Assembly (NCBI GenBank): GCA_947427385.1
Contig: CANEHT010000001.1
Span: 19,572-83,571, forward strand
Direction of reading: 5' to 3'
Origin: an uncultured Clostridia bacterium
Lineage (GTDB): Bacteria > Bacillota > Clostridia > Lachnospirales > CAMVHY01
DNA length: 64,000 nucleotides
Below the pieces are notes generated by a model. It was not told the origin of the DNA and did not search any database. It worked only from the letters and a program-made list of their open reading frames with translations. Positions 35,383 to 36,735 of the stretch are shown here, in pieces (position 1 is the stretch's first letter; each line of letters opens with the position of its first letter). The translations under genes were made by a program, and so were the position numbers.

Positions 35383-35430
35383 TTGACTTATCAAGTAAAA
35401 AACATTATACTTTGTAATATAAATGTAATA
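35383..35430 (+). promoter_or_regulatory. promoter of cassette 4 plus phased direct repeat (candidate operator)
   Basis: TTGACT (35383-88), 17-nt spacer, TATACT (35406-11). It is followed by TGTAATA-TAAA-TGTAATA (35413-35430), starting 2 nt after the -10. Confidence 0.5.
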
Positions 35431-35463
35431 TTATTTATGTTTTAAAGTGGAGGGGTGATATTT

Positions 35464-36576
35464 ATGTCAGGAAATAATGTTTCTACTGATCAAGATTTTA
35501 AAAAAATTAAAGATGCTGCATTAGAAGCAGCGCGCGAATTCTTAGATAAAATTCCTAATTGGTTTAATCGTAATGAAAATTATGTGAAGCAAGCAAAAGA
35601 TTTTTTAGATGATATAGAAACTGCAAATGATATAGTTGCTTTATCAGCTTGTATAAAACCTTTTGAAAATTTTATAGAAGATTTTGTTAATAAGGAATTT
35701 TCAAGATTACCAGTAAAAGCTGCAAATACTGTTGCTAATTATATCACTGTTGATACAGTTGCTGGAGCTGTTATAGGTGTTGCAGCTGCAGCAACTGGTG
35801 TAGCCGCAGCTACATTGGCTGCAGGTCCTGTTGGAGCTGCTGTTACAGGAACTATGGCAGGTGTATGTGGAGTAGCAAAAGTATATTCTAATGCTAAAGA
35901 TAAAGAAAAAGAAGAGATTAATCAGACTTTGGAAAAAGTAAAACAAACACGCAAAGATATAACTGAATATGATAAAAAAACGCAGATGCAACAAAAAAAA
36001 GAGAGAGGAAATGATAAAGAAAAAGAAAATGATAAGCAGCATACTCAAAATTCTCAAAAAGAAGGTAATACGACTATAAATATAACGGTCAAAAATGATT
36101 TAAGTAAACATCGTAAACGCAAAAAAGTTAAGCATGCTGAAAAATCAGAAGATTCGCAAGCATCAGGTAGAAAAAGTGTACTCAGAGAGCCTAAAAATAA
36201 TCAAGAAGATAATGAACAAACTCAAACGAAAAATGTAGAAGTTCAGACAGAATATGAATCAAATATTGAAAAAGAAAATGAACAAAAAATAATACATGCA
36301 CCAACGGAAGCAAGGGGGGATATTGCTCCACGTTATATTAACAGATTAAAAAATGAACAAGAAGCAATTGATAAACAGATTATTTTAGAGGAAAATGAAA
36401 AAAGTACTTCAACAGTACATGCGCCACGTGAACCAGAAGCTGATGTTAAATTAAGAAATAAAGCTAGACGAATGATATTAGCCAGGGCTGGAATAAATGA
36501 AAATGGAAATCAACAAAATAAACCTTTTGTAAAGAAGAAAAGCGAAGAAGAAAAAACAAAATCAAAATTTAGATAA
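35464..36576 (+). CDS. hairpin-anchored orphan protein, cassette 4 (370 aa; A/G-rich hairpin, long K/E-rich tail)
   Basis: SD GGAGGGG, 8-nt spacer, ATG 35464 (MSGNNVS). The hydrophobic block is VAGAVIGVAAAATGVAAATLAAGPVGAAVTGTMAGVCGVA. The tail has a repeated HAPTEARGD / HAPREPEAD unit. Confidence 0.75.
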   Translation: MSGNNVSTDQDFKKIKDAALEAAREFLDKIPNWFNRNENYVKQAKDFLDDIETANDIVALSACIKPFENFIEDFVNKEFSRLPVKAANTVANYITVDTVAGAVIGVAAAATGVAAATLAAGPVGAAVTGTMAGVCGVAKVYSNAKDKEKEEINQTLEKVKQTRKDITEYDKKTQMQQKKERGNDKEKENDKQHTQNSQKEGNTTINITVKNDLSKHRKRKKVKHAEKSEDSQASGRKSVLREPKNNQEDNEQTQTKNVEVQTEYESNIEKENEQKIIHAPTEARGDIAPRYINRLKNEQEAIDKQIILEENEKSTSTVHAPREPEADVKLRNKARRMILARAGINENGNQQNKPFVKKKSEEEKTKSKFR

Positions 36577-36591
36577 AAAGGAAATAATCTA

Positions 36592-36620
36592 ATATCCGAA
36601 AATTATTTCGGATATTTTTT
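36592..36620 (+). terminator. terminator (type ATATCCGA...TCGGATAT)
   Basis: ATATCCGAAA-attat-TTTCGGATAT followed by a T-run. Confidence 0.8.
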
Positions 36621-36687
36621 ATAAAATTATTTTCATAAATTTGTTCATTTCATTTATGACAGTGTTTCGATAGTTATTAAAGTACAT

Positions 36688-36735
36688 TTGACTTTTGATA
36701 TTAAAGTAATTACAATTCGTAACACAAACGTAACA
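36688..36735 (+). promoter_or_regulatory. promoter of cassette 5 plus phased direct repeat (candidate operator)
   Basis: TTGACT (36688-93), 17-nt spacer, TACAAT (36711-16). It is followed by CGTAACA-CAAA-CGTAACA (36718-36735), starting 2 nt after the -10. Confidence 0.5.

Follow-up and report, generated by a model that had tools for sequence, protein, structure and literature searches.

What protein, if any, recognizes the phased direct repeats that lie immediately downstream of the -10 elements of several orphan genes in an uncultured mouse-gut clostridial bacterium? The question is raised by a 64,000-nucleotide (nt) stretch of DNA from contig CANEHT010000001.1 (hereafter the window), in which two neighboring units of promoter and gene, referred to here as cassettes 4 and 5, each carry such a repeat. 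The initial annotation of this DNA, which was made from its letters alone, wrote the repeat as YGTAAYA-N4-YGTAAYA and proposed that it serves as the common operator of a dedicated DNA-binding regulator. The sequences, spacing and positions of both promoters and both repeats are exactly as that annotation described (Table 1). With slightly better than even confidence, we read the 11-bp-phased repeat as an operator for a response regulator of the OmpR/PhoB family, most likely the WalR (YycF/VicR) orthologue of this organism. Judged by sequence, it is most probably a conventional repressor site of an already known type and no part of a new regulatory system.

The match that suggests this identity is to an externally defined site. 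The consensus of WalR/YycF/VicR, an essential, conserved and global regulator of the cell wall, is TGTWAH-N5-TGTWAH; it has been used for Bacillus subtilis, Staphylococcus aureus, Streptococcus mutans and Clostridioides difficile, and a footprinting study of S. mutans VicR refined it to TGTWAHA-N4-TGTWAHA, which has the same 7-N4-7 layout as the repeat first annotated in the window. Inspection of the intergenic DNA revealed two direct and perfect TGTWAH hexamers at 12809-12825 (+), 35413-35429 (+), 36719-36735 (-) and 60484-60500 (-), with a 5-bp spacer and an 11-bp period in all four sites. Parsed as TGTAAT-ATAAA-TGTAAT, the cassette 4 box is perfect for both forms of the consensus. In the cassette 5 box, C replaces the first T of both half-sites on the plus strand; on the minus strand the same site reads TGTTAC-GTTTG-TGTTAC, a perfect match. 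A third promoter, at an orphan gene that starts at 12854, had also been annotated (TTGATT-17-TATAAT, overlapping TGTTATC ATAA TGTAATT), and we recovered it as written; its repeat has three mismatches to the heptamer pattern and so escapes a scan that tolerates up to two, yet is a perfect match to the hexamer consensus. The A at the seventh half-site position is present in cassettes 4 and 5, occurs in one of the two half-sites at 60484 and is absent at 12809. The 60484-60500 box, which lies at the orphan gene starting at 60555, is accompanied by a weaker third phased half-site at 60506-60511.

Perfect sites of this kind exceed chance expectation. The YGTAAYA-N4-YGTAAYA pattern itself occurs exactly twice in the 64 kb against none in 100 shuffles, a count that we rejected as circular, the pattern having been built from those two sites; the published consensus was used instead. 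TGTWAH-N5-TGTWAH has six perfect matches in the window, where 1.28 are expected and 1 of 100 shuffles reaches six. Four fall in the intergenic part (7.5 kb), against 0.22 expected under a first-order Markov model; none of 300 simulations reaches four. Some 98 kb drawn from six other loci (the same-species locus L009, plus three from close and two from more distant relatives) contain zero perfect matches, and the whole genome of C. difficile has only 29 that are intergenic. Among promoters of this composition, about 0.4% should by chance have a perfect heptamer repeat with an 11-bp period within a few bases of the -10; the cassette 4 and 5 pair is therefore homologous or functional, not a product of chance. 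A separate perfect match, at 16256-16272, falls inside the coding region of a TPR protein, antisense to the gene, and is conserved in the orthologous locus L092 (4236-4252); coding constraint probably maintains it, and its fit to the consensus is likely a coincidence.

All four intergenic boxes overlap the -10/+1 region of a predicted sigma-A-type promoter of a species-restricted orphan gene. Counted from the last base of the -10, they span +2 to +18 in cassettes 4 and 5, 0 to +16 at the 12854 gene and -7 to +9 at the 60555 gene. Comparison with orthologues supports the promoter calls, because the -35 and -10 hexamers (2 of 48 positions changed) and the stretch from Shine-Dalgarno sequence to ATG (1 of 71) are conserved while the promoter spacers diverge (14 of 68, the most variable part). 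Each of the four positions is one at which a bound dimer would occlude RNA polymerase. The original assignment of the repeat to a repressor position thus holds, in the sense that this is a cis-element where a bound protein would block the polymerase.

Table 1. Promoters, phased boxes and cassette genes in the window.
Feature	Position	Strand	Description
Cassette 4 promoter	35383-35411	+	Sigma-A-type: TTGACT (35383-35388), 17-nt spacer, TATACT (35406-35411)
Cassette 4 box	35413-35430	+	TGTAATA-TAAA-TGTAATA; one T between -10 and box, start 2 nt past the -10
Cassette 4 gene	35464-36576	+	370 amino acids, Gly/Ala-rich hydrophobic segment, Lys/Glu-rich tail; orphan
Cassette 5 promoter	36688-36716	+	TTGACT (36688-36693), 17-nt spacer, TACAAT (36711-36716)
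Cassette 5 box	36718-36735	not assigned	CGTAACA-CAAA-CGTAACA; one T after the -10
Cassette 5 gene	36765-37469	+	234 amino acids, one hydrophobic segment; orphan
Promoter of 12854 orphan gene	12781-12809	+	TTGATT, 17-nt spacer, TATAAT
Box of 12854 gene	12809-12825	+	TGTTAT-CATAA-TGTAAT; shares last base of the -10
Promoter of 60555 orphan gene	60463-60491	+	TTGATT, 17-nt spacer, TACAAT (orthologues: TTGACT)
Box of 60555 gene	60484-60500	-	TGTAAC-GTTAT-TGTAAT; inverted orientation, over -10 and +1; beyond the list of the initial annotation

Two further features of these promoters may be recorded here. Just upstream of the -35, cassette 4 (35352-35372) and the 12854 gene (12752-12772) have a common element, TTTTTGRAAAAYATTA; an UP element or a site loosely like a CodY box are possible readings, as is mere common ancestry. 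The promoter of the gene at 59482, a paralogue, is a copy (59409-59460) of the 60555 promoter and reads TTGACT-17-TACAAT; its first half-site, ATTACA, is kept and its second reads ATTGTG.

The same combination of promoter and box recurs before cell-wall genes elsewhere. A scan of metagenomes with the pattern TTGAYT-17-TAYAMT-N-YGTWAH-N5-YGTWAH returned 79 contigs, representing about 30 distinct promoters. Downstream of this layout lie genes for a DUF348-G5-3D peptidoglycan hydrolase, an NlpC/P60 hydrolase, FtsE (in two organisms; 282 bits, above the equivalog cutoff) and a YARHG-domain membrane protein, the last in four or more species with GC contents of 43-57%. WalR regulons are typified by wall hydrolases and division proteins, and the occurrence of the design before wall hydrolase and ftsE genes ties the layout to WalR-type control. 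In the YARHG promoters, flanks and spacers have diverged while the box is kept 1 nt past the -10, and T and C alternate at the first half-site position, indicating that a C at this position, as in cassette 5, is tolerated. The YARHG proteins themselves are membrane proteins of about 450-500 amino acids with a C-terminal YARHG domain, encoded on human-gut and other metagenome contigs (L114, L142, L154 and L163); in four species their genes carry TTGACT-17-TATAAT-N-YGTAAT-N5-YGTAAH, with the box directly after the -10. This pattern points to the family as a conserved WalR-type target. The idea of a common dedicated regulator is supported in one half: the element is shared by several orphan promoters, to which the 60484-60500 site can be added, whereas a dedicated, unknown regulator finds no support, since the box fits the WalR/VicR consensus and the layout precedes hydrolase and ftsE genes in unrelated metagenomic Firmicutes.

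How might such a site work? In B. subtilis, iseA (yoeB) is repressed by WalR bound inside its core promoter, and the WalRK system, active while cells grow exponentially, loses activity in stationary phase. In the window, a phosphorylated WalR-type dimer would bind the two TGTWAH hexamers head to tail across the 5-bp spacer, one helical turn apart; lying over the -10/+1 region, the dimer would occlude RNA polymerase and repress the gene at all four promoters. By analogy with iseA, the orphan genes would be off during growth and would come on when wall growth stops and WalRK activity falls. Both the occupancy of the sites and the negative sign of regulation are what we infer here.

Phylogenetic footprinting was carried out with the orthologous loci L001, L002, L085, L086 and L092. 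Both hexamers of the cassette 4 promoter are invariant in L001 and L002, where 4 of 17 spacer positions have changed and the sole change in the box is a T to C at the degenerate sixth position; the hexamers of the 12854 promoter are likewise invariant in L092, again with 4 of 17 spacer positions changed. The 60484 box is perfect (TGTAAT-GTTAT-TGTAAT) in L085, L086, L087 and L088, down to 65% protein identity, its changes being confined to the degenerate H position. Divergence between orthologues is too shallow for this approach to be informative on selection at the box: orthologous intergenic DNA differs by only about 5-12%, with 7 of 70 box positions changed against 10 of 129 in the upstream background, and no signal specific to the box emerges, which is a point against WalR-type control. 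More telling on constraint, as we see it from these alignments, are the comparison of paralogues and the kind of change observed. When cassette 4 is compared with the L001 copy of cassette 5, the boxes agree at 17 of 18 positions and the promoter spacers at 8 of 17 (Fisher p = 0.0025).

The kind of change is most apparent in cassette 5. In L001 and L002 its -10 is TATAAT and the orthologous box reads TGTAATA-TAAA-CGTAATA; relative to these, the window (36711-36735) has five clustered T-to-C changes. One lies in the -10, three fall within half-sites and the fifth is in the intervening spacer, so that 25 nt hold 5 changes where the surrounding 250 nt are about 3% diverged. The changes make the two half-sites identical again and shift the perfect consensus match to the minus strand. 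They destroy a plus-strand box and create a perfect minus-strand one. A further and rather doubtful idea is that fast-evolving orphan genes, which arise and disappear among the strains of one uncultured gut clostridial species, have come under the control of the essential, conserved two-component regulator of the cell wall or of a paralogue that shares its half-site and is confined to this lineage; the operator would then be kept by turnover rather than by conservation.

Several other observations weigh against WalR-type control. A scan that allows one mismatch to the consensus shows no enrichment (28 sites against 32 expected), for which reason only perfect sites were used, and the consensus was recognized only after the site had been seen. 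The promoters of cassettes 4, 5 and the 12854 gene may be paralogous, leaving perhaps only two independent origins, for which the probability of two or more sites given 0.22 expected is about 0.02. In L092 the first half-site of the 12809 box is TATTAT, with loss of the key G. The four box-bearing genes of the window, two of which encode hydrophobic segments, are orphans without a recognizable cell-wall link, and the metagenome search pattern itself imposed the promoter-plus-box layout. Finally, as the initial annotation had stated, no cognate regulator is identifiable in the window: tblastn with an OmpR-family query matched only the receiver domain of Spo0A (17715-18500). No WalR or other OmpR-family gene occurs in the window or in the roughly 20 kb of extensions; the latter, about 10 kb on each side, contain neither walRK nor further promoter boxes. 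We infer the presence of WalR in this genome from the published statement that WalRK occurs in all Firmicutes.

The alternative that survives best is that the box is bound by another regulator with a similar half-site, either a different OmpR/PhoB-family member, PhoP for example, or a paralogue peculiar to this lineage that serves only the orphan genes, which is in essence the proposal of the initial annotation. Direct repeats with an 11-bp period are generic for this family, and the PhoB consensus, CTGTCATA-W-A-W-CTGTCACA, has been noted as very similar to the WalR box; the targets in the window are orphans rather than wall enzymes, and the C at half-site position 1 in cassette 5 and the YARHG promoters departs from the classical consensus. 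The PhoP hexamer of Firmicutes (B. subtilis) is TT(A/T/C)ACA, or TTHACA, repeated with a period of about 11 bp. The strand opposite the boxes reads DTWACA, and its half-sites (ATTACA, GTTACA or GTAACA) each match this hexamer at five of six positions, the mismatch always falling at position 1. PhoP is hence never matched perfectly where the WalR consensus is perfect at four sites, the same design precedes hydrolase and ftsE genes typical of WalR regulons, and no regulator gene is linked to any cassette. We therefore regard a different regulator as fairly unlikely.

Less probable still is a relic without function: a tandem duplication of 11 bp would have arisen in the promoter module of an ancestor and have been carried along as cassettes duplicated. 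The flanks had been annotated as otherwise diverged, a description that missed paralogous modules: cassettes 4 and 5 keep weak similarity in the 40 nt upstream of the -35 (z 2.6) and in the untranslated region (z 2.9), the two promoters are thus probably paralogous and their sites not independent, and the flanks of the 12854 promoter share in this weak similarity. Terminator stems common to the cassettes suggest duplication of terminator, promoter and gene as a unit; cassettes are gained and lost (cassettes 3-6 are missing from L009, and L001 and L002 carry cassette 5 as a pseudogene); and between orthologues the box shows no measurable excess of conservation over background. All of this would suit a relic. 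Set against it, the 60484 site belongs to a promoter family unrelated to the others and differs from them in orientation and register; the paralogous boxes are nearly identical where their spacers are not; the sequence coincides with an externally defined protein-binding consensus; and the 59482 promoter has lost its second half-site where the 60555 promoter keeps it in three lineages.

A third possibility, which we consider decidedly improbable, takes the hexamers as promoter elements, namely overlapping or tandem extended -10-like sequences (TGnTAnnnT) that provide alternative start sites. TGTTAT can indeed arise from extended -10 elements (TGnTATAAT), a further point against reading it as a WalR half-site: it forms part of the extended -10 TGTTATAAT of cassettes 1-3, TGTTATCAT in the 12854 promoter could be an extended -10, and the second copy in cassette 4 reads TGTAATATT. 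However, TGTAAT has a G at the critical second position of a -10, the CGTAAC of cassette 5 has neither the TG nor a -10-like hexamer, the number of promoters found by consensus scan in the region is at chance (57 against 54), and the strict 11-bp phasing is left unexplained. That the repeat acts in the messenger RNA leader, either by recruiting an RNA-binding protein or by folding so as to control translation or stability, is very improbable, for although most of the element would be transcribed from a start about 7 nt after the -10, and the 60555 leader is almost invariant between orthologues, there is no shared fold (folding energies against shuffles, z = -1.9, +0.55, +0.12 and -0.6), no Rfam family (only two tRNAs in the window pass Rfam thresholds), the first half-site falls no later than +1, and one site, read on the opposite strand, overlaps the -10.

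The window comes from the core chromosome of a low-GC spore-former and carries spo0A (17715-18500), bofC, pth-mfd, groESL and the genes for ATP synthase and glycolysis, and the closest genome, at about 95% DNA identity, is a mouse-gut metagenome-assembled genome (MAG) labelled uncultured Eubacteriales MGBC163006. Between the housekeeping genes lie monocistronic units, each with a sigma-A-type promoter, a strong Shine-Dalgarno sequence and a terminator, that encode orphan products. The cassette 4 protein has only three homologues among 5.8 billion clusters, and an exhaustive HMMER search of 1.84 billion representatives with its N-terminal 175 amino acids found only two remote relatives and no informative domains; the 12854 and 60555 proteins have two homologues each, and searches of the orphan proteins against Pfam, NCBIfam and PHROGs gave nothing above cutoff. 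Compared between the window and L085 and L092, orphan coding DNA is 82-83% identical (protein 63-65%) against 93-99% for housekeeping genes, and the orphan-gene promoters, about 88% conserved, exceed their own coding sequences in conservation.

The cassette array (31437-38664) varies between strains. L009, the GTDB representative MAG, lacks cassettes 3-6 in DNA that is 95% identical; cassettes 1 and 2 have a decayed copy in cassette 3 (34329-35247); the cassette 5 gene has a nonsense mutation at codon 23 plus frameshifts in L001 and L002; and the close relatives L010-L012 (75-81% LonC identity) have no cassettes and no boxes. Terminator hairpins in two groups of positions (35227-35260, 36591-36616 and 38640-38664; 31435-31462 and 33106-33133) follow two repeated designs, ATATCCGA..TCGGATAT and AAAAATCTGTG..CACAGATTTTT, a repetition that, by sequence, suggests duplication of entire units from terminator through promoter to gene. 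Cassette 1 (31544-32998) encodes an all-helical protein with hydrophobic hairpins and a weak, sub-threshold likeness to DUF2207_C and to alpha-xenorhabdolysin subunit A (E = 1e-6; 28 bits, where the cutoff is 125); AlphaFold models of the cassette 4 and cassette 1 proteins are poor, with predicted local distance difference test (pLDDT) scores of 40 and 45, respectively, the latter too low to bear on a pore-former-like fold. In the 60555 gene, an in-frame TAA stands three codons after the Shine-Dalgarno-linked ATG (60543-60557) and the gene restarts at a GTG, while orthologues read through from that ATG (226 amino acids). A 2.3-kb stretch at the start of the window that seemed free of open reading frames is only apparently so, being occupied by a gene that runs off the edge.

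If the box is indeed a WalR operator, it provides several uncharacterized, species-restricted genes of this uncultured spore-former from the mouse gut with a regulatory input open to testing and a likely condition of expression, namely de-repression when wall growth stops. A box directly after the -10 would also be suggested as a common repressive WalR layout in Clostridia, including the YARHG-protein and hydrolase genes of human-gut species, and this layout could help to predict WalR regulons from metagenomes. No new kind of regulatory system is revealed.

Among known operators, several resemble the repeat in part. Spo0A boxes, TGTCGAA (TGNCGAA), are absent by direct reading from 35383-35440, 36688-36740, 12781-12830 and 60463-60515. 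CtsR operators, the heptad direct repeats RGTCAAA-NAN-RGTCAAA over clp promoters, likewise place a heptamer direct repeat over a sigma-A promoter in a repressor position; by direct reading they differ in having a 10-bp period, compared with 11 here, and a heptamer that agrees at only 4 of 7 positions. The Pho boxes of PhoB and PhoP have the same 7-bp direct repeats, A/T-rich 4-bp spacer and 11-bp period, and the PhoB half-site differs from that of the window at the fourth base (TGTCAT against TGTAAT). The WalR box is the same in half-site sequence, direct orientation, spacer and period, and the half-sites of the 12809 box are identical to those of the S. mutans gcrR site TGTTATagaacTGTAAT, a footprinted, high-affinity VicR site; the differences are that the targets in the window are species-restricted orphans, not known wall enzymes, and that cassette 5 has a C at position 1 on the promoter strand. 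A parallel in position is offered by WalR repression of B. subtilis iseA (yoeB) and pdaC (yjeA): there, too, the box lies within or over the core promoter, where a bound regulator would block transcription, although the iseA site is described as overlapping the -35 and -10, whereas the boxes of the window occupy -7 to +18 as counted from the last base of the -10. As with iseA and pdaC, de-repression would be expected once WalRK activity drops in stationary phase.

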